In this document: piece by piece, positions 11,972 to 23,930 of the stretch
Position numbering within the stretch: the first letter of the stretch is position 1
Layout of the letters: each line of letters begins with the position of its first letter
Assembly (NCBI GenBank): GCA_034520945.1
Contig: JAXHNB010000001.1
Coordinates: 32,001 to 96,000, forward strand
Direction: 5' to 3'
DNA length: 64,000 nucleotides
Source: Trueperaceae bacterium
GTDB taxonomy: Bacteria > Deinococcota > Deinococci > Deinococcales > Trueperaceae
Position numbers and translations under genes: made by a program
Notes under the pieces: generated by a model
What the model saw: only the letters and a program-made list of their open reading frames with translations
The model's database searches: none
Told to the model about the DNA's origin: nothing

Positions 11972-12418
11972 TCAGCCCTCGGCGACCACCACGACGTCCA
12001 GGTCGATGGTGACCTCGGGGTGCGGTTTGTAGGGAAGGGTGTAGCGGCCGAGCGTCTTGATCGGCTCGGACAGCTCGATCTTGCGGCGGTCCACCTCGAC
12101 GTCGTACGCCTTCTTGAGGGCGTCCGCGACGTCGCGGTTGGTGACCGAGCCGTAGATGCGCTCTTCGCCCGCCTTGACGCGGATCTCGACGGCGGCGTCG
12201 GCGAGGAGCTCCTTGAGCCGTTCGGCGTCGTTCTTGCGTTCCGACAACTGCCGTGCCCGCTGTTCCAGGCGCGCCTGAAGCTCCTTCTGGTTGCCCTTCG
12301 TGGCGGGCAGCGCCAGCCCCTGCGGGACCAGCCAGTTGCGGGCGTAGCCCGGCTTGACCCCCACCACGTCGCCGGCCTCGCCGAGGGTGCCGACGGGTTC
12401 CAGCAGGATGACGTTCAC
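11972..12418 (-). CDS. rplI: 50S ribosomal protein L9
   Basis: VILLEPVGTLG, VKPGYARNWLVP, IYGSVT; GTG start overlaps the rpsR stop. Confidence 0.97.
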   Translation of the reverse strand: MNVILLEPVGTLGEAGDVVGVKPGYARNWLVPQGLALPATKGNQKELQARLEQRARQLSERKNDAERLKELLADAAVEIRVKAGEERIYGSVTNRDVADALKKAYDVEVDRRKIELSEPIKTLGRYTLPYKPHPEVTIDLDVVVVAEG

Positions 12419-12687
12419 TTGCGCACCAGCTTCTCGGTGATGGGGACCAGGGCCAGCATGCGGGCCCGCTTGATCGTCGTCGCCAGCCGGCGTTGGTGCT
12501 TGGCGCACACGCCCGTGCGGCGGCGCGGCAGGATCTTGGCGGTATCGCTGATGAAGCGGCGCACCATGCGTTGATCGTGGTAGGCCGTGATCTCCATCTC
12601 GCCCGTGCAGAACGGGCATACCTTGGGCCGGCGGCCCCGCCGGCCACCTGGGCGGCGGCGTTTGGCGTCTTTCGCGTCTCGTGCCAT
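12415..12687 (-). CDS. rpsR: 30S ribosomal protein S18
   Basis: KILPRRRTGVCAKHQR, IKRARMLAL; CxxC zinc form. Confidence 0.96.
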   Translation of the reverse strand: MARDAKDAKRRRPGGRRGRRPKVCPFCTGEMEITAYHDQRMVRRFISDTAKILPRRRTGVCAKHQRRLATTIKRARMLALVPITEKLVRK

Positions 12688-13535
12688 CAGAAGGGTAGAT
12701 CCTCCTCGGGTGGGAATTCGTCGTCGATGTCCAATCGGCGTTCCTGCCCTGCCTGGGCGCCGCGGGCGTCCTCGCGGGATTGCGAGGCCGGTCCGCCGCG
12801 GGTCCCGGTTCCACCACCACCGGGACCGCGGGTCAGGAACTCCACGCGCGACCCTTCGATGCGCGTCGTGAAGCGCCGATTTCCGTCACGGTCGGTCCAA
12901 GAGTCGTTCACCAGGCGGCCGGACACGAGGACCGGGTCGCCCTTGCTCAACTCGGCGCAGCCCTCCGCCAACTCGCGCCAGACGTTGATGTCGACGAAGT
13001 GGGTCCGTTCCTGGTCCTGGCCGCTCTTGTCGCGAAACCGATCGTTCACCGCCATGCCGAAGCGCGCCACCGCCGCCCCTGAGGGCGTGTAGCGGAGCTC
13101 GGCGTCGCGGGTGAGGTTGCCGATCAGCGTCACCTGGTTCAACGCGCCGCGGAGGCGCTGTTGGCCCTTGGCGTCGCCGACCGTCGTCTCGCCGCTGCGG
13201 GGGCCGAACGTCATGGCCTCCACGCGCGTGGCGACCACGTCCAGTGCGCTGCGCCGTTGCCCGTCCTGGCTCTCCCAGGTGCGGTAGTCGACGCGCCCTT
13301 CGAGGAACACGGGGTCTCCTGCGTGCAGTTGGTCGGCCAGCATCTCGGCCTGGCCGCCGAACACCGTCGCGCGGTGGTACCAGGCCAGCTCGCGCTCCTT
13401 GCCGTCGTCGCCGACGACGTGATCGTTGCCGGCCAGGTTCAGCTCCAGGATGGCGAGGCCCCCGGGCGTGTAGCGCATCTCGGGGTCCTGCACCAGGGTG
13501 CCGACCATCAACACGTGATTCAGTCCTCGTGCCAT
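12687..13535 (-). CDS. ssb: Single-stranded DNA-binding protein, two-OB-fold Deinococcus/Thermus type
   Basis: Two copies of LN-V-L-G-L--D-E-RYTP; C-terminal EEDLPF. Confidence 0.97.
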   Translation of the reverse strand: MARGLNHVLMVGTLVQDPEMRYTPGGLAILELNLAGNDHVVGDDGKERELAWYHRATVFGGQAEMLADQLHAGDPVFLEGRVDYRTWESQDGQRRSALDVVATRVEAMTFGPRSGETTVGDAKGQQRLRGALNQVTLIGNLTRDAELRYTPSGAAVARFGMAVNDRFRDKSGQDQERTHFVDINVWRELAEGCAELSKGDPVLVSGRLVNDSWTDRDGNRRFTTRIEGSRVEFLTRGPGGGGTGTRGGPASQSREDARGAQAGQERRLDIDDEFPPEEDLPF

Positions 13536-13602
13536 GCGTTCCTCTGTCTCTGTGGGCGCGCCGCGTGGCGCGGCGACAATGTGGCTCCCTGCGGCGGGCG
13601 CC

Positions 13603-13947
13603 TCAGTCGGCCGCCGGGGCCGCCGCGGGCTGGGCCTTGCGGGTGTGCCACTCGGGGCGGTCCTTGACGACCAGCACGCGCATCACGTTGTCGCGCTGGC
13701 GCAAGGAGGCCTCGATCTGCTTGGGCGTGTCGTTCGGGAGCGACAGCCGGTAGATCAGGTAGTACCCCTCGTTCAGCTTGCGGATCGGGTAGGCCAGGCG
13801 TTGGCTGCCCCACTCGTCGAGCTTGACGAGCGTGCCTCCGGCGCGCTGAATCTGCGCGTCGACGGCGTCCTTCTCCGTCTGCACCTGGGCGTCGGACAGG
13901 CCCGGGTCGAGGATCAGATTCAGGTCGTACTCTGCGGTCTTGGTCAT
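13603..13947 (-). CDS. rpsF: 30S ribosomal protein S6
   Basis: YDLNLILDP, WGSQRLAYPIRK, VMRVLVVK; AGGAGGT RBS. Confidence 0.96.
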   Translation of the reverse strand: MTKTAEYDLNLILDPGLSDAQVQTEKDAVDAQIQRAGGTLVKLDEWGSQRLAYPIRKLNEGYYLIYRLSLPNDTPKQIEASLRQRDNVMRVLVVKDRPEWHTRKAQPAAAPAAD

Positions 13948-14103
13948 GCGTTCACCTCCTCTCCGCTTGGAATCGCCGCGGGGGCCCTGGGCCGTCCCGT
14001 TCGAAGGGGGCACGGCGCGACGCGAACCGGCGTGCGGTCCGCCCTCAGGGACGCATTCCCTGCCGCGGGGGCCGCCGAGCGGCGGCAACTGACGATTGTA
14101 GCA
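13948..14103 (-). promoter_or_regulatory. rpsF promoter (extended -10 TGCTACAAT) and ~140-nt 5' leader
   Basis: TACAAT at 14095-14100 preceded by TG; GC-rich leader ending in the SD. Confidence 0.55.
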
Positions 14104-14141: not shown

Positions 14142-15566
14142 TCACCCGCGCGGCGCGGCGTCCGCGTCCACGACCTCGTCGCCCGTCCAGGCGCGCGCCA
14201 CGGCCCGGGCGTCCCGCACGCAGGCGTTCACGCCGGCGCCGCCGTACGCGGCGCCCACGAGCGCCAGCGGACCCAGCGCGGCGGCCCGCGCCCGCCAGCG
14301 AGACACCCGGGCGGGGTGCCCCACGAGCGGTTGGGGGATGGCCCGAGGCCAGGTGAGGGTGCGCACGTGGGTGGGCGGGGCGTTCACCCCGAGCGTGACG
14401 CGCAGGTCGCGCCGCGCCACGGCCAGCGCCTCGTCCGCGCCCATGCGGACCAACGCCGGGTCGCGGCGCCCGCCGGCCAGGACACGCAACAGGGCGGTTC
14501 CCTCCGGCGCCTGCCCGGGGAATAGGGTGGAGGCGAACAGCACGCCCAGGCTGCGGGCGCCCCGGCCGGCGGGGATCAGGTAGCCGAAGCCGCCCAGGGG
14601 ATGCGGCACGTCGACGCGCCGGTAGCCGAGCGCGATCACGCGCATGGGCGCGTAGGGAAGGGCGGCCAGTTCGTCGGCCAGCTCGGCGTCGTGGGGCCCC
14701 AGCAGCTCCGCCGCCGCGTGGGTCGGCACCGCCAGCGCGACGCGGCGGGCCCGCACCTCCTCGGCGCCTGCGCAGCGGAGCCGCCAGCCGTCACGCTCGC
14801 GCGTCAGGGCGTGCACGGGCGTGCCGGTCCGCAGCGCATCGCCCGCGGCGGCGGCCAGGGCGTCGGTGAAGGCCTGCATGCCGTCGGCCCCGAAGCCGTG
14901 GAGGCGTGGGCGTGGCGGCGCGTCGGCGGTCGATGCGTCAGCGTGCGGTGCCGCGGCCTGGGCCCGTTTCGTGCGGGCCCGGACGGCACGCAGCAGGCTG
15001 CCGTGCCTCCGCTCCATGGCACGCAGCTCGGGAAACGCCGCGTCCAGCGAGACCTCGCGCGGGTCGCCGCCCAGGACGCCCAGCACCAATGCTTCGCCCA
15101 GCGCGTCGGCGGCCGGACGCCCGAACCTGCGCGCGAGGAAGGCGTCGACGCTCTCCTCTTCGGTGCCCACGGGCGCCCACGGCTCGGCCAGCGCGATCGC
15201 CTTGCCAAGGGGGCCGAGCAGTTCGCTACGCAGCGCCTCCCGCGGCGACGTGGGCAGCGGGCGCAGCCCGCCGTCCCGGTAGATCCAACGCGTGCGGGCG
15301 GCTGGATCGGCGGGCCGTGGGTCCGCCCCCAGCGCCCGGGCGAGGGGGACGGCGCCGTCTGCGTCGTCCAGCACGCCGCTGGGCCCCCAGTCGGCGAGGT
15401 ACCCCTCGGCGCGGCTGCTCCGCGCTGCGCCGCCGGGGGCCTCGTCGGCCTCCAGCACGGCGATCCGCCACGACGGCCGGGCGCGCCGCAGCAGGGCGGC
15501 CAGCGCCAACCCGCTCACGCCGGCGCCTACCACGGCGGCGTCGAACGTCGGCTCGGGGTGCGTCAC
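14142..15566 (-). CDS. hemY: HemY-type protoporphyrinogen/coproporphyrinogen oxidase
   Basis: VVGAGVSGLA FAD motif, GFGYL, WPRAIPQ, GAGVNACV; GTG preceded by TATCGT -10. Confidence 0.9.
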   Translation of the reverse strand: MTHPEPTFDAAVVGAGVSGLALAALLRRARPSWRIAVLEADEAPGGAARSSRAEGYLADWGPSGVLDDADGAVPLARALGADPRPADPAARTRWIYRDGGLRPLPTSPREALRSELLGPLGKAIALAEPWAPVGTEEESVDAFLARRFGRPAADALGEALVLGVLGGDPREVSLDAAFPELRAMERRHGSLLRAVRARTKRAQAAAPHADASTADAPPRPRLHGFGADGMQAFTDALAAAAGDALRTGTPVHALTRERDGWRLRCAGAEEVRARRVALAVPTHAAAELLGPHDAELADELAALPYAPMRVIALGYRRVDVPHPLGGFGYLIPAGRGARSLGVLFASTLFPGQAPEGTALLRVLAGGRRDPALVRMGADEALAVARRDLRVTLGVNAPPTHVRTLTWPRAIPQPLVGHPARVSRWRARAAALGPLALVGAAYGGAGVNACVRDARAVARAWTGDEVVDADAAPRG

Positions 15567-15625
15567 GGCGTGCACGATACCGCGGCCGTCGCGGCGTGCC
15601 GCCGGCGCGCGGGGTGGCCCGCCGT

Positions 15626-16618
15626 TCAGGGGCGGCGGTACACGAAGGTGGACCGGATCACGTACGGCCAGGTGGGGCGGGGGTCTTCGCCGGTGAACAG
15701 GCGGTCCAGGACCAGGCAGCGCACCTGGTGCCAGCCGGGGCTCAGGGGTGGGGTGCGGGCCGGGATCAGGGCGGCCGTGCCGCGCGGGACCTTGCCGTAC
15801 CACAACAGGCGCCCCTCGAAGGCGGGGAACTGCCGGTCGTTTAACAGGCAGGTGAGGGCGTACGGCCCGTCGTGGCGCGCGGACTCGCCGTACCACAGGC
15901 CGAAGCGCCAGACCTCCTCGCCGGCCGGCAGCACGTGGATCGATGCCGGGGCCCGCGGCGTGCCGCGGTCGTAGAGGTAGGCGTCGGGCAGGGGGGCCTC
16001 GGCGCGGGTCGCCTCGGTGGACGCCAGGCCGGGCGGTGGTGGCCGTGCTTCGCCGAAGGCCACGCGACGCATGTCGGCCTGGTCGTACGCGTACGTGACG
16101 GCGTCGGCGGGGGAGAGGGGCTGGTCGGGGCCGGCTTCGCGGATCGCCTCGGGCACGGCGGGCGAGGGGTGAGGGGTCAGGTGCACGTCGAGCGCTGTGC
16201 CGGCGGGATGCGGGAGGTGAACGCTCCACGCCGCCGTTTCCCCACACGCAACGGTGCGGACCGGATCAGGCCCGTGGCGCTGCACGCCGTCGGCGAAGGC
16301 CAGCATGGCGACGTCCACGGGCTGTGGGACCGAGATCAGGCGGAAGGTCGCACGAAGCGAGGTTGCGTCCGCGTCACGCTTCGTGTCGCTGCCCACCGAG
16401 TAGCGGATCCGGTCGGGCTGCGGGTCGGCGCAGGGATCGCGTTGGGCGTCGGCAGGATGGCCCGCCGCGAGCAGCGCGGCGGATAAGAGCAGGGTACGTC
16501 CGACCTTCCTTGCGCGGCGCACCCGCCCCGCCCCCATGTCGGGGGGCGGGGCGCCAGGGCGCGTGAGGGCAAGCCGGAACAAGGGCGGAGATGCGGGCGT
16601 ACCGGGGGGTCGGCTCAT
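15626..16618 (-). CDS. Hypothetical exported protein
   Basis: Basic then hydrophobic signal-like segment (RRARKVGRTLLLSAALLAAGHPADA); ATG overlaps the upstream stop; true start uncertain. Confidence 0.65.
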   Translation of the reverse strand: MSRPPGTPASPPLFRLALTRPGAPPPDMGAGRVRRARKVGRTLLLSAALLAAGHPADAQRDPCADPQPDRIRYSVGSDTKRDADATSLRATFRLISVPQPVDVAMLAFADGVQRHGPDPVRTVACGETAAWSVHLPHPAGTALDVHLTPHPSPAVPEAIREAGPDQPLSPADAVTYAYDQADMRRVAFGEARPPPPGLASTEATRAEAPLPDAYLYDRGTPRAPASIHVLPAGEEVWRFGLWYGESARHDGPYALTCLLNDRQFPAFEGRLLWYGKVPRGTAALIPARTPPLSPGWHQVRCLVLDRLFTGEDPRPTWPYVIRSTFVYRRP

Positions 16619-17163
16619 CGGTCGTATGTTTCGTCGTACTCGGGAAAGTCCCCCGCGTTCTCGATCCCCTTGTGCCAGCCGTCCGCCCGCAAGGAGTACT
16701 CTTCGTACTCCTGGCAGGGGGCGCTGTACGACACCGAGGCCGAGATCGCCGAGATCGGGCCGTAGCTGTCCTCGAACGTCTGATTGCGCAGCACGCCGTT
16801 GGCGTACAGCTTGACGTCGGCCGCCAGATAGTAGGCAGAGCGGTTGGCGACGGTGGAGGCGTAGGCGTCGGCGCTCCAGGTGAAGAAATCGCTGTCGGGG
16901 TAGAAGCAGTCCATGGCGAACACGTTCAGGTCGGTGGCGGAGTCGTCGAGGTGGAACGGCTCGTCGTCGTCGTACCCTTCGTCGTACCCGTCATCGTCGT
17001 CCCCGCCCCAGCCGGCGACGGTACGTGCCAGCGCGTCGGACGGGGCCGGAACGGGCCCCTCGGCTGCGGCGAGGCCCGCCAGCAGCAGCGTGAGCGTGAG
17101 CAACGTGGCCGTCCACGCCAGGCGTGCGCCCGGCGCCACGTCTCGGTGGGGATGGGCGTTCAT
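16615..17163 (-). CDS. Hypothetical secreted acidic, Tyr-rich protein
   Basis: Signal peptide ending LAAA-E, GDDDDGYDEGYDDDE tract, two Cys; GGAGG RBS; ATGA coupling. Confidence 0.8.
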   Translation of the reverse strand: MNAHPHRDVAPGARLAWTATLLTLTLLLAGLAAAEGPVPAPSDALARTVAGWGGDDDDGYDEGYDDDEPFHLDDSATDLNVFAMDCFYPDSDFFTWSADAYASTVANRSAYYLAADVKLYANGVLRNQTFEDSYGPISAISASVSYSAPCQEYEEYSLRADGWHKGIENAGDFPEYDETYDR

Positions 17164-17684
17164 CGCGGGCCTCCCTTCAGGCCGAGCTGCCGGGCCAACG
17201 CCGGGTCGGCGCCGGGGTGAGAGACGAGGCGGCGCAGCTCGGCACGGCCGACACCGCGTCCCTGCGTCCGGGCCCAGGCGGCGCGCACCTGCCCCATGGT
17301 CACGCCGGCCGCGTCGAGGTGACGGCGCAGCGCCTCGGGACCGGCGTGGAGCAGCACGTCGCGCGTGGCGGGCGGAACCTGGTTCAGCACCGCGTCGTCC
17401 AGGCGCAGCAGGTTCAGGTCGCGGCCGTGCGACAACGTTCGCGGCAGGCCGGGCGGGAGGCGCTTGCCCCCCAGCAGGAAGGTGCCGTCCTCCGCGACGG
17501 TGATCTCACCGAGTTCGGCGAGGTCCAGGGTGCGCATCACCTCGGCGCGCGTCCAGGTGGGGTGCGGCCGGTCGGCCGTCTCCACTTCGGGGGCGTCGGG
17601 CGTGCCGCAGGCGGCCAGCATCACCGCGAGCGCGGCGAGGGCGACGGCGACGCGTGTACGCGTGGCGGGGGGTGTGCGTGTCAT
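17160..17684 (-). CDS. Hypothetical lipoprotein
   Basis: Lipobox LAAC after a hydrophobic signal; GGAGGG RBS. Confidence 0.8.
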   Translation of the reverse strand: MTRTPPATRTRVAVALAALAVMLAACGTPDAPEVETADRPHPTWTRAEVMRTLDLAELGEITVAEDGTFLLGGKRLPPGLPRTLSHGRDLNLLRLDDAVLNQVPPATRDVLLHAGPEALRRHLDAAGVTMGQVRAAWARTQGRGVGRAELRRLVSHPGADPALARQLGLKGGPR

Positions 17685-17712
17685 AGGGGTCCCTCCGTGA
17701 ACGACTCGGGGC

Positions 17713-19137
17713 TCAGGGTCGGCGTCTGCGTGGCGTCAGCGGCCTCACCCCCCTTCGGCGCGTCGCCCCGGCCGCCAGGGCCAGGGCGGGAAGGTCGAGG
17801 GTGCCGCCGAAACGGGCGTAGGGCGTGCGGGCGCGTGCCCAGGCGAGGTCGTGCACCAGGACGGCCGGGTCCCGCCCCGAGGTGTGGGCCACGGTGCGGC
17901 CGCGTGCGTCCAGCACGGTCGTGGGCCCGGTCGCGGTGACGAACAGCACGGGCGTGCCGTTCTCGGCGGCGCGGAGGCGCGCCACCGCGAGCTGCAGGTG
18001 CGGCATGGCGCTTCGCCCCGCGAAGGCGGCGTCCGACACGGCGACGAGCGCGTCCGCGTCGCGGGTGGCGGCGCGGATCTCGGCGGCGTACACCAGGTCG
18101 AAGCACACCGCCAGGGACAGCCGTCGTGGGCCGAACGTCACCTGCGCGGCCTCCGTGCCCGCTTCGAAGCGATCCTCGTGCCAAGGCACGGGATGACGCT
18201 TGACGTAGCGCACGGCGGCGTCGTCGGCCAGGTCGACCACGGCGTTGCGGAGCCCGGCATCGTCGCGAACCGCTGCCCCGACCAACACGGCGAACGGGGC
18301 CGTACCGAAGACGGGCGCCACGCGCGGGCCGGCGACGCCGGTGGGGGAGAGCGTCCCCTCCGGCCCAATGATCAGCCTGGCGCCCTGGCGCACGGCCCGC
18401 CGCAGCTGCCCGTCCAGGCGCGCCCGTAGGGCACGGCCCGCCTCCGGCCACCGCGCCGCCCAGGCGCGATCGGCCCGGCGGACGCCGGTCTGCAGCAGGG
18501 CGACGCGGGTGGTCGCGTCCCCCGGGGACGCGCGCAGCGTGCGCGGCGGCACGGCGAGGTGGGTCGCCAGCAGCAGCGCGGTCAGGCAGCCGAGCCACAT
18601 CGCGGGGCGCCGCAGGGTGGCCGCCCGTGGGCGCCGCGTCGCCAGCGGGAGGTCCGCCACCGCGAGCGCGGCCAGCCATGCCGCCACGCTGGTCGTGCTG
18701 ACGCCGGCGAGGGCGGCGGTCGGTCCCAGCGGCGTGGCGGCCACCAGGTAGCCGACCCGGACGAGCGGCAGGCCGCCGAGGTGGCCCCAGGCGGCTTCGA
18801 CGCTCAGCCAGGCCGCGGCGAAGCCCAGCGACGCCGCCTGCATGGAGGCGCCGCCGCGTAGGGCGCGGGCGTGGACCGCGCCGGCGAGGGCGAAGGGCGC
18901 GGCGACGGGCAGGGCCGCCAGCGGCGCCCACGGCCACACCTGCACGGCGCCGCCCGCCGTTACCGCCAGCGCGGATGCGACCGGCAGGGCGGACGCCGCG
19001 CAGGCCCCGAGGTAGCTGCGGGCGCGACGGGCGGCGTGCAGGGCCAACGCCAGCGCGGGCACCACCAGGATCGCGAGGGCCTCGTGGGCGGTTCCGAGCG
19101 CCATCGTTGCGGTGGAGGCCGCCAGAAGCAGACGCAT
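17713..19137 (-). CDS. Apolipoprotein N-acyltransferase-like (Lnt paralogue, nitrilase fold)
   Basis: Multi-TM N-terminus; VALLQ, GPEG (E), YVKRHPVP (K), AVCFD (C), LRAAENG; ATG overlaps the C39 gene stop (TGATG). Confidence 0.85.
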   Translation of the reverse strand: MRLLLAASTATMALGTAHEALAILVVPALALALHAARRARSYLGACAASALPVASALAVTAGGAVQVWPWAPLAALPVAAPFALAGAVHARALRGGASMQAASLGFAAAWLSVEAAWGHLGGLPLVRVGYLVAATPLGPTAALAGVSTTSVAAWLAALAVADLPLATRRPRAATLRRPAMWLGCLTALLLATHLAVPPRTLRASPGDATTRVALLQTGVRRADRAWAARWPEAGRALRARLDGQLRRAVRQGARLIIGPEGTLSPTGVAGPRVAPVFGTAPFAVLVGAAVRDDAGLRNAVVDLADDAAVRYVKRHPVPWHEDRFEAGTEAAQVTFGPRRLSLAVCFDLVYAAEIRAATRDADALVAVSDAAFAGRSAMPHLQLAVARLRAAENGTPVLFVTATGPTTVLDARGRTVAHTSGRDPAVLVHDLAWARARTPYARFGGTLDLPALALAAGATRRRGVRPLTPRRRRP

Positions 19138-19730
19138 CAGCCCGCCTCCGGCACGAAGACGAGGCCGGTCCATGCGGCGCGGAAGTCGTCCAGGGCGAGG
19201 CCGCGCAGGCCGCGCGCCGGGTCGGCCAGCAGCACGGCGCGGTCACTCAGGCGCCGCACCACCACCAGGTGGCCGGGCGCGGCAGGGGTGGGCGGCGCCA
19301 ACTCGGCGGCGAAGGGGCGGGGCAGGGCCGGCAGGTCGGTCAGGCGGGCGTGCAGCCAGCGGCCTTGGATCCCCACCTCGGCCGCCAGCGCCGCGACGTC
19401 GTCGAGGCGGAGGCCGGCGGGTCCCAGGCGGTCGCCGGCGCGGACGGCCAGATCCCCTTGGTCGAGGGACCGCCCGCGCGACGCGGCCAGCATGGCGACG
19501 ACGGCCAGGCCACAGTCGGTGGGCCGCCGTTGCAGCACCACGCCCTGGGTGCCGAGCGATAGGCTGCCGTCCGGCCGCTGGAGCGACGGAGGCAGCGGGC
19601 GCGCCAGCGGCGCCCAGGCCAGCACCCATGGCAGCAGGAACGCCAGCAGCCGGGCGGGGCGCGCCCGGCCGTGCGGTGCGCGGCGGGCAGGCCGGGGCGT
19701 GGGCTGGGGGGCGGGGCGCGGGAACGGCAT
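19137..19730 (-). CDS. Stand-alone C39-family cysteine peptidase with signal-like N-terminus
   Basis: GVVLQRRPTDCGLA (Q, C), GHLVVV (H), LADPARG (D), FRAAWTG; no ABC domain. Confidence 0.88.
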   Translation of the reverse strand: MPFPRPAPQPTPRPARRAPHGRARPARLLAFLLPWVLAWAPLARPLPPSLQRPDGSLSLGTQGVVLQRRPTDCGLAVVAMLAASRGRSLDQGDLAVRAGDRLGPAGLRLDDVAALAAEVGIQGRWLHARLTDLPALPRPFAAELAPPTPAAPGHLVVVRRLSDRAVLLADPARGLRGLALDDFRAAWTGLVFVPEAG

Positions 19731-19830
19731 GCCGCCACGGTAGGGGGGCCGCCGCCACGGTGCGCGGGGTGGTGGGCAGCCTGCCTAGCGCAGGGGTGCA
19801 CGCGGCCGTGTCGCCTTGGCGTCACGGACG

Positions 19831-19862
19831 GGCGGCGCCGTGGCCCGGCCTACGGCGCCGCC
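19831..19862 (-). terminator. Hairpin after hemH
   Basis: GGCGGCGCCGT / ACGGCGCCGCC stem between the hemH stop and the cassette promoter. Confidence 0.55.
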
Positions 19863-19926
19863 GCGCGACCCGGCCGAGCCCCCGGTTCGCGCTGGGCGAG
19901 GCGGTGCGCGGCTGGACCGGCCGGCC

Positions 19927-21051
19927 TCAGTCCGTCGCGTAGCCACCCTTCTTCAAAGACGGGCTGACGTTGGTGCGCTTGTACGGTGCCACCGGCTTCA
20001 GGACGTTGCGGCACTGCGGGTTGACGCAGCCGGGGCAGCGCAGGCCGTACTGGGTGCTGCACGCTTCGCCGCGCTTGAGGTGCTCGGCGACGATCTCGCT
20101 CAGCGCGTCCTGGAAGCGCGGCATGCCGTTGAGGGCCGGGGCGCGCACGTAGTTGTCGATGCCGACCTTCTCGGCCAGCTCGCCGTACTCGATGTCCAGT
20201 TCGTGCAGCGTCTCGATGTGGTCGCTGGTGAAGGCGATCGGGACGACCAGGACGTTCTTGCGCCTCTTGGCGCCCAGCTGCTCGATGACCGACTCGGTCG
20301 ACGGGCCCAGCCACGGCACGGGACCCACCTCGGACTGGTAGGCGATCAGGTACTCGTAGGCGTAGCCCAGCCGCTGCATCACCTCGTGCGTGGTGGCGCC
20401 GACCTCGGCCGGGTAGGGATCGCCCCGGTTGACGACGCTCATCGGCAGCGAGTGGGCGCTGAACACGATCGCCACGTCCTCGCGATCCTCGTCCGAGAAC
20501 TCGGCCAGGCCCTGGCGCACCGTTTCGGTCATGGCGTCCACGAAGGTGGCGTGCGTCGGCCAGCGGTCGATCACGCTCCATGTGAACGCGTCCTGCAGCC
20601 CCACGCGGCGGGCGGCCCGCCACAACTCGTTCAGCGACGAGCCGGTGGTCGCGCAACTGAACTGCGGGTACTGCGTGAACGCCACCGCCCGGGTGATGCC
20701 GTCGTCGTGCATCGCCTTCAGGGCATCCTCGCTGAGCGGGTCGATGTAGCGGAACGCCACGTAGTGGCGGTGCGGGGCCGTCTGGGGCGAGAGGGTGTCC
20801 AGGCGCTCGCACATGCCGCGGCCTTGGAGCTCGGTCCAGTCCAGGATGGGGCTGCCGCCGCCGATGTCCTGGTAGTTGCTCTGCACGCTCTTGGTGCGCC
20901 TGTTGGCGATGAACGGCCCCAGCCAACGCTGCGCCGGCAGCTGAATGATCTCCCGGTCGGCGAACAGCCGGAGCAGGAACGGGTTGACCTCGTCCAGGCG
21001 CTTCGGCCCACCGAGGTTCATCATCACGATTCCGGTACCACCTTGGCTCAT
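19927..21051 (-). CDS. hemH: Ferrochelatase with animal-type [2Fe-2S] Cys motif
   Basis: MMNLGGP, GGGSPI, YPQFSCATTGSS, FSAHSLP, GPVPWLGP, FTSDHIETLHELD, C-terminal CPGCVNPQC. Confidence 0.96.
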   Translation of the reverse strand: MSQGGTGIVMMNLGGPKRLDEVNPFLLRLFADREIIQLPAQRWLGPFIANRRTKSVQSNYQDIGGGSPILDWTELQGRGMCERLDTLSPQTAPHRHYVAFRYIDPLSEDALKAMHDDGITRAVAFTQYPQFSCATTGSSLNELWRAARRVGLQDAFTWSVIDRWPTHATFVDAMTETVRQGLAEFSDEDREDVAIVFSAHSLPMSVVNRGDPYPAEVGATTHEVMQRLGYAYEYLIAYQSEVGPVPWLGPSTESVIEQLGAKRRKNVLVVPIAFTSDHIETLHELDIEYGELAEKVGIDNYVRAPALNGMPRFQDALSEIVAEHLKRGEACSTQYGLRCPGCVNPQCRNVLKPVAPYKRTNVSPSLKKGGYATD

Positions 21052-21109
21052 GCTGGCATCCTCTCCGAACCCGTGCATCGTCGCGTCACGGGGGTGCGAT
21101 GTGCGCTGA

Positions 21110-22186
21110 TCACGCGCCTTCGGGCGTCCGCGGGCGCTCGCTCGCGGCGAGCTCGCGCTCGATCTCGTCTCGCGCCGCCTCCGGCGTCAGGGCGGCCCAG
21201 TCGCGCGGTTGGTAGAACCGCAGCGCCCGGGCCTCCTCCGTCCCCGCCGCCGGCCTCGCGTCGAAGCGCCAGGACGCCTCGGGCGGCATGCTCATCAATA
21301 TCGCCTCGACGTTGCCGCGCGTCTGCAAGCCGAACAGCGTTCCCCGGTCGTACACCAGGTTGAACTCGACGTAGCGCCCGCGGCGCAGGCGTTGCCAGTC
21401 CTTCTCCCGCGCCCCCCACGGCGCCGAGGCGCGGCGGCGGACCAGCGGCAGGTACGCCTCCAGGACGGTGGCGAGGCCGTCCTCGACGAACGCCAGGTCG
21501 GCGGCGAAGTCGCCCGCGCCGGGGGGCGAGAGCTCGTCGAAGAAGATGCCGCCCACCCCCCGCATCTCGCCCCGATGCCGGATCGTGAAGTAGTCGTCGC
21601 AGGTTCGCTTCATCACGGCGTGATCGGCCTGCGGGTGCCGGTCGCACTGCGCCTTCAGCGCCTGGTGGAACTGCACCACGTCCGCTTCGCGGGGGTGGCT
21701 GGGGGTCGCGTCCGCCCCGCCGCCGAACCACCACACGCCGCTGTCCTCGCCCCGCCCCACCTCGAAGTAGCGGTAGTTGGCGTGAAACGCGCACACGTGG
21801 GGGTTCGTCGGGTGCAACACCATGCTGAGCCCCGTCGCGAAGAACGGCCGCCCCTCCGTGCCGGGATGCTGCGCCGCCAGGCTGGGCGGAACCTCGGCGC
21901 CGTGCACGGCCGACATGTTCACGCCGCCCCGCTCGAACGCCGCGCCGCCCTCGATCACGCGGGCGCGACCGCCCCCACCACCGGGCCGATCCCAGGCGTA
22001 CGGCCGGAAGGTGCCGCCGTCCTCCGCCTCCAGCGCGGAGACGATGCGCTCCTGCCACGTCCGCATGGTGCGCGCCACGCGTTCGCGACGCGTGCCGGGC
22101 GCGCCGGCCAGGCGGGCGACGTCGGCCAACGCCTCGGCGTCGGCCTCCCGGGTCCACGGCGCGTCGCCGGCGCCCCCGCCCCTCAC
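21110..22186 (-). CDS. hemF: Oxygen-dependent coproporphyrinogen III oxidase
   Basis: HANYRYFE, WWFGGGAD, RGVGGIFFD, RRGRYVEFNLVYDRGTLFGL; start uncertain. Confidence 0.95.
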   Translation of the reverse strand: MRGGGAGDAPWTREADAEALADVARLAGAPGTRRERVARTMRTWQERIVSALEAEDGGTFRPYAWDRPGGGGGRARVIEGGAAFERGGVNMSAVHGAEVPPSLAAQHPGTEGRPFFATGLSMVLHPTNPHVCAFHANYRYFEVGRGEDSGVWWFGGGADATPSHPREADVVQFHQALKAQCDRHPQADHAVMKRTCDDYFTIRHRGEMRGVGGIFFDELSPPGAGDFAADLAFVEDGLATVLEAYLPLVRRRASAPWGAREKDWQRLRRGRYVEFNLVYDRGTLFGLQTRGNVEAILMSMPPEASWRFDARPAAGTEEARALRFYQPRDWAALTPEAARDEIERELAASERPRTPEGA

Positions 22187-23223
22187 GCCGGCGCCTCCGC
22201 GGTCGCGGCGTGACGGTCGAAGCTTCGCACCGTATCGACGAGGACCTCGACGCGGGCGGGATCCACCATCGGCAGCATGCCGTGGCCCAGGTTGAACACG
22301 TGCGCACCGCCCAGGCCCGCACGCAGCACGCGCACGGCCTCATTGCGAACCGCCTCCGCGGGCCCCAACAGCGCGGCGGGGTCGAGGTTTCCCTGCAGGG
22401 CCGGCACGCGGCCGCCCACCGCGGCGCGCACCTGGTCCAGCGGGGTGCGCCAATCGACGCTCAGCGCCTCCAGCGGCAGGGTGGCGAAGGCGTCGTAGAG
22501 GTGCGCCGCCCCCACCGCGATGTAGATCCGCGGCACGCCCGTGTCGGCCAGGGCCTCCAGCACGCGGGCCGCGTAGGGCCGGCCGAAGGCGGCGTAGGTG
22601 CGGGCGTCGTGCAGGCCGGCCCAGGAGTCGAACAGCTGCACCGCCTGCGCCCCCGCCTCGATCTGGGCGCGCAGGTAGGCGATCGTCGTGTCGGTCAGCT
22701 TGTCCAGCAGCCGGTGCGCCAGCGCGGGCCGGGCCCGCAGCAGGCCGCGAAGCTGGGGGTACTCCTTGCTGCCGCCGCCCTCCACCAGGTAGGTGGCCAG
22801 CGTCAGCGGCGCGCCGCCGAACCCGATGAGCGGCACCTGCAGCTCGCCGCGCAGCAGGCGGATCGCTTCGGGCACGAACGGCGCGATCTCGCCCGCGTCC
22901 GGCACGCGGAGCGCGTCCACGTCGGCGTCTTGGCGGACCGGCCGGCGGATGATGGGGCCGGGCTGGAAGTCCACGTCGACGCCCATCGCCGGGAGCGGCG
23001 TCATGATGTCCTGGAACAGGATCGCGGCGTCCAGGCCGTAGCGCCGCACCGGTTGCAACGTCACCTCCGCCGCCAGCTCGGGGGTGCGGGCCAGCTCCCA
23101 GAACGCGTGGCGCTCCTTGAGGGCGCGGTACTCCGGCAGGTGCCGTCCGGCCTGCCGCATCAGCCAGATCGGCGCGCGCTCGGTATCTTCGCCGCGCACC
23201 GCGCGCAGGAACAGGTCGTTCAC
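22183..23223 (-). CDS. hemE: Uroporphyrinogen decarboxylase
   Basis: PIWLMRQAGRHLPEY, QLFDSWAG, LQGNLDP, FNLGHG. Confidence 0.96.
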   Translation of the reverse strand: MNDLFLRAVRGEDTERAPIWLMRQAGRHLPEYRALKERHAFWELARTPELAAEVTLQPVRRYGLDAAILFQDIMTPLPAMGVDVDFQPGPIIRRPVRQDADVDALRVPDAGEIAPFVPEAIRLLRGELQVPLIGFGGAPLTLATYLVEGGGSKEYPQLRGLLRARPALAHRLLDKLTDTTIAYLRAQIEAGAQAVQLFDSWAGLHDARTYAAFGRPYAARVLEALADTGVPRIYIAVGAAHLYDAFATLPLEALSVDWRTPLDQVRAAVGGRVPALQGNLDPAALLGPAEAVRNEAVRVLRAGLGGAHVFNLGHGMLPMVDPARVEVLVDTVRSFDRHAATAEAPA

Positions 23224-23930
23224 GATTCCTCCTCGGGCGTGAAGCGGTAACCCACGCCCCACACGGTGTGGAAGTGCACCGGGCGGGCCGGGTCTGGCTC
23301 CAACGTCTTGCGGAGCCGCATCACCACGTTGTCGACGGTGCGGCTGCTGGGGAAGGCGTCGCTGCCCCACACCTCGTCCAGGATATCGTCGCGGCTGACC
23401 ACCTCGCCGGGTCGCGAGGCCAGCAGCCGCAGGATGCCGATCTCGCGCTCGCCCAGCGTCTCCTGCCGCCCGTCCGCAAGCGTCGCCGTCCAGGCGCGCA
23501 GGTCGACCTCGTGGCCGGCGAAGCGGATCGCGCGCCGCCCCTCGCCCCAGCCGCGGCGCCGCAGCACCGCCTCCACCCGCAACAGGAACTCCGGCAGGTG
23601 GAACGGCTTCGCCAGGTAGTCGTCGCCCCCGGCGGCCAGGCCCTGCACGCGCTCCTCGGGGCGGCCCTTCGCGGAGAGGAACAGGACGGGCGTCTCGTCC
23701 CCCTCCTCGCGCCGGATCCGGCACACCTCGAGCCCGTCCACGTGCGGCAGCATCACGTCGAGCACCACCAGGTCGAAGCCCCCCTCGCGCCAGCGCGCCA
23801 ATCCCTCGCCGCCGTCGTGCGCCAGCACGATCTCGTGCCCCTCCTCGCGCAGGTTGTCGGCCAGGACCTCGGCCAGGCCGCGCTCGTCCTCGATCACCAG
23901 CACGCGGGGACGCCGGCCGGGCGCGCTCAC
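23220..23930 (-). CDS. OmpR/PhoB-family response regulator
   Basis: LVIEDE, LDVMLP, DDYLAKPF, RTVDNVVMRLRK, TVWGVGYRF. Confidence 0.95.
   Translation of the reverse strand: MSAPGRRPRVLVIEDERGLAEVLADNLREEGHEIVLAHDGGEGLARWREGGFDLVVLDVMLPHVDGLEVCRIRREEGDETPVLFLSAKGRPEERVQGLAAGGDDYLAKPFHLPEFLLRVEAVLRRRGWGEGRRAIRFAGHEVDLRAWTATLADGRQETLGEREIGILRLLASRPGEVVSRDDILDEVWGSDAFPSSRTVDNVVMRLRKTLEPDPARPVHFHTVWGVGYRFTPEEES

Follow-up and report, generated by a model that had tools for sequence, protein, structure and literature searches.

What is the function of a C39 peptidase whose gene is followed directly by a paralogue of Lnt, the apolipoprotein N-acyltransferase? This question is raised by a five-gene cassette on the minus strand of a 64,000-nucleotide (nt) stretch of Trueperaceae bacterium GCA_034520945.1, contig JAXHNB010000001.1; the whole stretch is called the window here. 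The cassette encodes a C39 peptidase, an Lnt paralogue (LntL), a lipoprotein, an acidic exported protein, and an exported protein of 330 amino acids (aa). The original prediction, made from the window alone, took the five genes for one unit, i.e., a dedicated pathway that cleaves a secreted precursor and acylates or anchors it or its partner lipoprotein, possibly as an insertion between hemH and hemY. In the present analysis, the C39 peptidase and LntL were found to be a dedicated and conserved pairing. The five genes are two modules, i.e., this pair and a cargo trio, and not one unit. It is proposed, tentatively, that the pair cuts an exported protein without a lipobox cysteine and acylates the new end.

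The conserved pair of C39 peptidase and LntL

The C39 peptidase matched Pfam PF03412 with 52.1 bits, above the gathering threshold of 22, and its Q67, C73, H154, and D170 were aligned with the catalytic residues of PCAT1. The protein is composed of an Arg-rich N-terminus, a single hydrophobic segment (residues 28-42), and the C39 domain (residues 64-194). Seven Arg residues stand before the hydrophobic segment and one after it. By the positive-inside rule, the C39 domain would therefore face the periplasm. As had been predicted, the catalytic residues are in place and no ATP-binding cassette (ABC) domain is attached: the best ABC-fused model gave 24.6 bits against a cut-off of 853, and the open reading frame (ORF) of 197 aa ended at 19137. 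The parallel that had been drawn to FapD held only as a loose analogy, i.e., 18.5 bits with NCBIfam NF058616 against a cut-off of 330.

A profile of this C39 clade was run over 364 genomes of the phylum, and matches of at least 129 bits were regarded as strong. The 67 strong places were all in two families, i.e., Trueperaceae (f1) and its sister family (f5), and the next best place scored 71 bits. Forty-one of the 67 loci were examined, comprising 39 loci of relatives (37 genomes), the window, and a second locus of the window's own genome. An Lnt paralogue was located immediately downstream of the C39 gene in 40 of them, and in the only miss (L030) the contig ended 188 nt after the C39 gene. 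Near the weaker stand-alone C39 matches, no such paralogue was detected in 17 of 18 loci. The co-occurrence that had been predicted from a single genome is borne out by these counts. The Q/C/H/D tetrad was kept in 37 of the 41 strong-clade C39 proteins. A full-text literature search found no description of a C39 peptidase paired with an Lnt-type enzyme, in agreement with the original prediction, which knew of no such system. Stand-alone C39 genes of approximately 200 aa were also found in families f2-f4 (loci L086-L100, L102, and L103). They scored 36-67 bits with the clade profile and had no Lnt paralogue nearby, and in four of these proteins Arg replaced the catalytic His.

LntL was identified as a polytopic membrane protein with a CN-hydrolase domain (PF00795, 53.6 bits), and it was aligned with Lnt along its full length. 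E260, K313, E321, and C345 (474-aa numbering) were invariant in 13 aligned Lnt-type proteins, canonical Lnt included, and the catalytic Cys was aligned with C387 of E. coli Lnt. The Lnt-like enzyme that had been predicted was found again in these results. A canonical lnt gene was present on another contig of the same genome (277.7 bits). All 12 paralogues in the alignment were without a stretch of approximately 24 residues that canonical Lnt has between the catalytic Lys and Cys. In the phylogenetic tree, 46 paralogues formed one group, separate from 11 canonical Lnts, with a Shimodaira-Hasegawa-like approximate likelihood ratio test (SH-aLRT) value of 94. The LntL of the window clustered with the copies of its genus-mates that belong to the F2 type described below (SH-aLRT 92 and 97). 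The identity to these copies was approximately 30%, whereas hemH of the genus-mates was 81-85% identical. The pair was found at the same hemH-adjacent site in the genus-mates and in another genus, and in genome G019 it lies between hemH and hemY. Given this shared site and the grouping of LntL, the locus is taken for an old one whose cargo was exchanged rather than for a fresh insertion, and the insertion that had been considered found no support.

Word-based homologue searches, in which the 8000 candidates with the most shared words were scored, gave only three relatives of the C39 peptidase and no C39-Lnt fusion among 92 Lnt-type matches; with this scope the evidence is weak. For P0002 (C39, 51% identity) and P0034 (LntL, 47% identity), the longest contig listed is the same one of 4234 nt, and a further relative, P0033, is 93% identical. 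A tblastn search of LntL against plasmids gave only ordinary lnt genes among the 25 of 38 records listed. Two metagenomic Lnt-type proteins, P0036 (682 aa) and P0037 (725 aa), showed PF02517, a CPBP/Rce1-like intramembrane protease, between LNT_N and CN_hydrolase. In these proteins, another protease is joined to an Lnt-type enzyme as a fusion.

The second pair of the window's own genome was located on contig C2 (85320-87499), preceded by genes of two secreted proteins (338 and 352 aa). The whole second locus extends over 85320-89323 of this contig (G000; loci L012 and L050). In this pair and in those of three relatives (L026, L027, and L085), both the catalytic Cys and His of the C39 protein were lost. 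These dead C39 genes still adjoin an intact Lnt paralogue, and the paralogues concerned form one clade. Because a catalytically dead peptidase is retained beside an intact paralogue, the arrangement suggests a further role of the C39 domain, i.e., that it receives the substrates of the putative acyltransferase. Some type 1 secretion ABC transporters have C39-like domains that serve as substrate receptors in this way.

Candidate cargo proteins in relatives and in the window

The gene that follows the pair encodes, in 24 of the 39 loci of relatives, a protein of approximately 200 aa, which was named F2. The protein begins with a Sec-type signal and a short spacer, followed by E/D-L-x-x-V/I-T-[GA]-G, zero or one residue, and C-x2-4-C. 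A Gly/Asp/Pro-rich linker and a β-rich domain of approximately 130 residues complete it. The motif [GA]G-x0-2-C-x2-4-C behind an E/D-L-x-x-V-type leader, classically ELxAVT[GA]G, was found in all 24 loci, 21 of them by the strict pattern. In an alignment of 18 of the sequences, the second Gly and the second Cys were invariant; the other six were left out for a contig end or uncertain start codons. F2 made up 28 clusters in a collection of 5.8 billion proteins, all unnamed or "hypothetical". The [GA]G-C-C core was present in 27 of these 28 database homologues, and 18 had the strict leader. The motif is the recognition signal typical of C39 peptidases, and its place behind a Sec signal fits a periplasmic C39 peptidase. 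From its sequence, F2 is likely the C39 substrate in relatives, and its cleavage there by the C39 peptidase is considered quite probable.

After F2 comes a secreted protein of approximately 300 aa (F17, F31, or F36), and then often F18, a TolC-like protein of 430-540 aa with weak matches to Pfam OEP (TolC-type). No family was given to F2, F17/F31/F36, or F18 by Pfam or NCBIfam models. In one F2 (L029:1857-2501, genome G009), the "lipo-invert putative C-terminal anchoring domain" NF058595 was matched with 17.1 bits against a cut-off of 37. The match covers the signal, the GG, and the Cys region, and it was judged compositional. None of F2, F17, F31, F36, and F18 was found in the window's genome with these queries. 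In the lower-GC sister family f5, an OEP-like outer-membrane gene precedes the pair (L022, L017, L082, and L083). In L022 (3804-6522), genes of a 262-aa secreted protein and of an OmpH/Skp-like chaperone (PF03938, 40.7 bits) also precede it. The flanks retrieved for the f5 loci showed no cargo of the F2 type.

The trio of the window, i.e., the lipoprotein, the acidic protein, and the 330-aa protein, recurs with its gene order unchanged in further genera of Trueperaceae and on contigs from metagenomes. In these, another Lnt paralogue comes after the trio and not before it (15 non-redundant loci; in most others the contig ends first). The C39 profile matched 0 of 32 trio loci elsewhere (L120-L151). 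In the genus with most trio loci, 0 of 10 genomes had any C39 match in the phylum scan. Because the trio occurs without C39 in other genera, the cassette is understood as the pair joined to a separate cargo trio. The single five-gene unit of the original prediction had to be given up, since the pair goes with the F2 set in 24 loci of relatives and the trio is without C39 in the 32. The trio adjoins hem genes in other genera, too.

The lipoprotein has a signal peptide and a LAAC lipobox with Cys26, and L23, A24, and C26 were invariant in eight homologues. No Pfam or NCBIfam family was found for it. The 330-aa protein was modelled as two β-sandwich domains with a predicted local distance difference test (pLDDT) value of 69. 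Conserved Cys residues occur in it, together with a PGWH..C motif at the C-terminus, and its best PDB matches were RbmA and transglutaminase β-barrels, i.e., a generic fold. Profile comparison of the trio proteins with F2, F17, F31, F36, and F18 gave nothing (probabilities of at most 9.4). Strain-level variation of the cargo was also observed. X3, X4, and X5 are contigs of other runs. In X3, 287 unlike letters take the place of 290 nt at the 5' end of the gene of the 330-aa protein (window 16323-16614). In all three, the part of the acidic gene that encodes the Asp-rich linker lacks six bases (window 16985-16993).

The acidic protein consists of a signal peptide (approximately residues 13-34), a propeptide (35-52), an invariant GG (53-54), an Asp-rich linker, and a β-sandwich (75-165). 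Its model showed a signal helix, a disordered part (36-73), and the β-sandwich, with a pLDDT of 62, and no PDB match was found in the fold search at E of 0.001 or below. A disordered tether that leads into a globular domain, as modelled here, would be typical of an envelope protein with a lipid anchor.

The propeptide is the feature that sets the window's protein apart. Among eight aligned homologues, only this protein has an insert of 18 residues between the signal peptide and the invariant GG. The insert was absent in all 20 distinct homologues from the 32 loci without C39; in these, a run of glycines follows the signal peptide directly, e.g., LAFA-GTGGGDD. By the AXA rule, applied by eye, the predicted mature N-terminus was Gly in 19 of the 20 and WGG in one. 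In this last homologue (ALA-WGGSGG), the predicted mature end WGGSGG matches the product that cleavage between AG and WGG would give in the window's protein. A propeptide ending in AG is kept in two metagenomic relatives, P0130 and P0132 (59% and 62% identity). Compared with a double-glycine leader, only L(-7) and AG (-2/-1) of the window's propeptide fit.

For the C39 domain and residues 30-100 of the acidic protein, a joint complex was predicted. It reached a score of 0.63, and the best control reached 0.00. Of 157 solved complexes, 116 came up to this mark; of 215 mismatched pairs, 2 did. The runs had at least 50% of the contacts in common. In the predicted interface, residues 36-53 of the acidic protein lie against residues 67, 70-74, and 151-155 of the C39 peptidase, i.e., the active-site groove. 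Solved PCAT1-substrate complexes exist. The pass may reflect likeness to these complexes and is no proof of binding by this pair. On the whole, cleavage of the acidic protein by the window's C39 peptidase is regarded as somewhat probable, with less assurance than the cleavage of F2 in relatives.

The proposed pathway and its alternatives

It is proposed that the acidic protein, as the cargo in the window, would be exported by Sec. The membrane-anchored and periplasm-facing C39 peptidase would bind the short propeptide behind the signal peptide and cut after its AG, or after the GG that comes next, in the manner known for C39 domains and double-glycine leaders. LntL would acylate the N-terminus newly made by this cut, and the product would be a lipid-anchored envelope protein without a lipobox cysteine. 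The lipoprotein and the two-domain 330-aa protein are its probable envelope partners. In most relatives the same enzyme pair would serve F2, and the TolC-like protein may carry F2 outward. The linkage of the two genes, the intact catalytic residues, the leader motif, the propeptide insertion, and the predicted interface were observed, and the cleavage, its exact site, the acylation, and the localisation are inferred. The acylation of the new N-terminus by LntL is given slightly less than an even chance. The reading of the cassette as a whole, in which the pair cuts and acylates the cargo module joined to it, is tentative and somewhat more doubtful than this single step. From the dedicated pathway of the original prediction, the pairing was retained, together with the cutting and acylation of an exported precursor as the simplest reading; the five-gene unit was not.

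Several results weigh against the proposed pathway. LntL scored 106.7 bits with the Lnt equivalog TIGR00546, below the cut-off of 132.9, and Pfam LNT_N was not detected in it. Its branch in the tree is very long, i.e., 1.41 against a median of 0.23-0.33, and this could mean either adaptation or relaxed constraint. A profile of the F2 leader found nothing significant in the window's genome, the acidic protein included (best E 1.5). The likeness of the propeptide to a double-glycine leader comes from a short motif and the complex model, in which the pLDDT of the partner was only 48-51. The contigs of the two propeptide-bearing relatives (1123 and 1549 nt) are too short to show neighbours. After cleavage at AG or GG, the new N-terminus would be Trp or Asp and not Gly, so that the specificity of AatD, the Lnt homologue compared below, is not simply transferable. 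The trio works without C39 elsewhere, and it contains a classical lipoprotein, i.e., an ordinary substrate of Lnt-type enzymes.

Four other explanations were weighed with the same evidence. LntL might be a specialised or spare apolipoprotein N-acyltransferase for lipobox lipoproteins, while the C39 peptidase trims another protein independently, with no hand-over between the two. The intact catalytic triad and the full-length alignment with Lnt would suit such an enzyme, and a lipoprotein whose lipobox Cys is invariant belongs to the trio in the eight aligned homologues and stands beside an Lnt paralogue in other genera. However, the genome already has its canonical lnt, and the paralogues form a group apart from the canonical Lnts and are all without the canonical loop. 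The F2 protein that follows the pair in relatives has a double-glycine leader and no lipobox. The linkage to C39, which is kept even where the peptidase is dead, would be left unexplained, and this explanation is considered unlikely. It is considered rather less likely still that the pair makes and exports a secreted antagonistic or signalling protein of the bacteriocin kind. The C39 peptidase would then remove a leader, and LntL would not N-acylate proteins but act in immunity, as an amidase, or on some substrate other than a protein, which it would modify. The maturation of bacteriocins is marked by double-glycine leaders and C39 peptidases, and PCAT1 was matched. A TolC-like gene with weak OEP matches follows in many relatives, and the cargo genes are exchanged from genus to genus, much as happens at the loci of polymorphic toxins. 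Yet no ABC exporter was found in the loci, and the cargo has a Sec signal of its own. LntL keeps the whole polytopic architecture of Lnt, and both F2 and the acidic protein look like tethered β-sandwich envelope proteins with a disordered linker.

The pair may also be a leftover in the window, i.e., its own cargo (F2/F36) was lost when the trio replaced it, and it now drifts without a link to the downstream genes. This would account for the missing F2, F17, F31, F36, and F18, for the very long branch of LntL and its low identity to the genus-mates' copies beside a well-kept hemH, and for a trio that needs no C39 elsewhere. It is nevertheless held to be improbable. Both ORFs are intact with all catalytic residues, a third-position GC (GC3) of 0.93, and a stop/start overlap, and the junctions are bridged by contigs of two further studies. 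The cargo, moreover, acquired a propeptide whose predicted place is in the C39 groove. Least probable is that the five genes co-evolved as one system and entered the space between hemH and hemY together. Co-orientation, overlapping junctions, and export signals on all five products speak for it. It is already contradicted, since other genomes have the pair and the trio apart from each other. The hemH-adjacent site is also occupied by the pair in genus-mates and G019, and hem genes adjoin the trio in other genera.

For a long time, the lipidation of bacterial proteins was believed to depend on a lipobox cysteine and on the enzymes Lgt, Lsp, and Lnt. In work of 2020-21 on the Aat system, an Lnt paralogue was reportedly able to acylate an N-terminal glycine. 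A wider proposal, put forward with still more reserve than that for the cassette, is that Trueperaceae and the sister family have a second, lipobox-free lipoprotein route. In this route, C39 would remove a double-glycine propeptide after Sec export, and LntL, which would have arisen separately from AatD, would N-acylate the new end. In some lineages the dead C39 would be a substrate receptor, and cargo modules would be swapped, with the propeptide gained or lost accordingly. The findings suggest at least one further recruitment of Lnt paralogues, in a remote phylum, and here with a dedicated protease that sets the new N-terminus. If this is true, the known kinds of bacterial lipoprotein become wider, the stand-alone periplasmic C39 peptidase gains a defined job, and the leader with the pair makes a compact two-enzyme tag. 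Three operon types are available as a natural series on how substrate recognition and acylation are coupled, and in one of them the protease is dead.

Layout of the locus and comparison with known systems

The features of the locus are listed in the table. The five co-oriented ORFs were present as had been predicted, all with a coding-type GC3 of 0.90-0.93, and export signals were recognized in the translations of all five. Overlaps at three of the four junctions were likewise confirmed, i.e., TGATG common to the C39 stop and the LntL start, ATGA between the lipoprotein and acidic genes as read from the letters, and four bases between the acidic and 330-aa genes by ORF coordinates. The fourth junction, between LntL and the lipoprotein, is a spacer of 28 nt with GGAGGG 7 nt upstream of the lipoprotein start. 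For LntL, the ATG at 19137, which overlaps the C39 stop, is a more likely start than the ATG at 19173. The junctions from the acidic gene through the lipoprotein, LntL, and C39 genes to hemH are bridged by contigs from two further studies (approximately 94-98% likeness), so that the arrangement is not an assembly artefact.

The original prediction had also given the cassette a promoter of its own and a hairpin that separates it from hemH. The hexamer TACCGT is indeed located 6 nt before the C39 ATG and is a possible promoter of a leaderless transcript; its promoter role was not supported by a consensus sigma-70 scan, which found no promoter for the cassette. The 11-bp hairpin is also present. 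Its separating role gained no support: it has no T-run, the 196-nt hemH-C39 spacer folded no better than shuffles (z 0.42; 130 of 200 shuffles were as good), and no terminator-like site was found on the minus strand.

Table. Features of the cassette and its flanks, with positions in the 64,000-nt window
Feature	Position	Strand	Description	Basis
C39 peptidase gene	19137-19730	-	197 aa	ORF, Pfam PF03412
LntL (Lnt paralogue) gene	17713-19137 or 17713-19173	-	474 or 486 aa	ORF, PF00795
Lipoprotein gene	17160-17684	-	174 aa; LAAC lipobox	ORF
Acidic exported protein gene	16615-17163	-	182 aa	ORF, alignments, model
330-aa exported protein gene	15626-16618	-		ORF, alignment, model
Propeptide codons EGPVPAPSDALARTVAGW	17008-17061	-	18 residues of the acidic protein	
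TACCGT, -10-like hexamer	19737-19742	-	6 nt before C39 ATG	Read from the sequence
GC-rich hairpin of 11 bp, no T-run	19831-19862	-	In the hemH-C39 spacer	Sequence, fold test
hemH	19927-21078		Flanks the cassette on the C39 side	
hemY / protoporphyrinogen oxidase gene	14142-15575		Flanks the cassette beyond the 330-aa gene	

Downstream of hemY, a conserved rpsF-ssb-rpsR-rplI cluster was found (window 12002-14013), and the same cluster comes after the operon in relatives L032 and L035. Both operon types, i.e., C39-LntL-F2 and lipoprotein-acidic-330-aa with a following Lnt paralogue, repeatedly adjoin heme-biosynthesis genes in different genera. These neighbours are hemH, hemY, and hemA/hemC/hemB/hemE-like genes (window 14142-23250; loci L023, L120, L123, and L125-L128). 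The position beside heme genes may be inherited or may mean a functional link.

Compared with known systems, LntL is related in build to E. coli Lnt (structures 5N6H and 5XHQ), with a polytopic N-terminal part and a CN-hydrolase domain that has the Glu-Lys-Cys triad and a second Glu. It differs in falling below the equivalog cut-off, in the gap of approximately 24 residues between Lys and Cys, in its separate clade, and in neighbours that predict non-lipobox substrates. The C39 peptidase shares the fold and the Q/C/H/D residues with the peptidase-containing ABC transporters (PCAT) of the PCAT1, ComA, and LagD type, whose substrates have an ELxxVxGG leader and are cut after GG or AG. In contrast to these, it is a stand-alone peptidase of 197 aa with one N-terminal membrane segment, presumably periplasmic. 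A Sec signal stands in front of the leader, and the partner is a putative acyltransferase of the Lnt type and not a transporter. FapD of the Pseudomonas Fap functional amyloid is likewise a stand-alone exported C39 peptidase with Sec-exported substrates and an adjacent outer-membrane channel gene. No Fap neighbours are present here, and the partner is an Lnt paralogue.

By analogy, the closest functional precedent appears to be AatD of the Aat system (AatPABCD with the dispersin Aap or CexE) of enteroaggregative and enterotoxigenic E. coli, which the original prediction had not named. According to PMC7943197, once signal peptidase has cut CexE and Aap, the Lnt homologue AatD acylates the Gly at their N-terminus, and the system includes a TolC-like outer-membrane protein. 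Both systems have an Lnt paralogue with the same catalytic residues, and that of Aat lipidates a Sec-exported non-lipobox protein at a new N-terminus. The signal end of Aap (NAFA-GGSG) resembles that of the trio homologues (LAFA-GTGGG), i.e., AFA followed by a Gly run. On the other hand, LntL and AatD gave a BLASTP E of 7.4, i.e., no detectable pairwise similarity, with at most 19% identity, and AatD stands on a separate and very long branch. Judged by these sequence comparisons, LntL is not a member of the AatD family. The ABC permease/ATPase and the periplasmic adaptor of Aat have no counterpart here; a TolC-like gene is not among the window's five, and a weakly OEP-like one occurs in relatives only. 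The phylum and the cargo folds differ as well. The N-terminus would be set here by C39 and not by signal peptidase I only, and the word "C39" is absent from the main text of PMC7943197. The lipidation of non-lipobox proteins by an Lnt paralogue is of an already known kind, and what would be new here is the dedicated protease and the cargo families.

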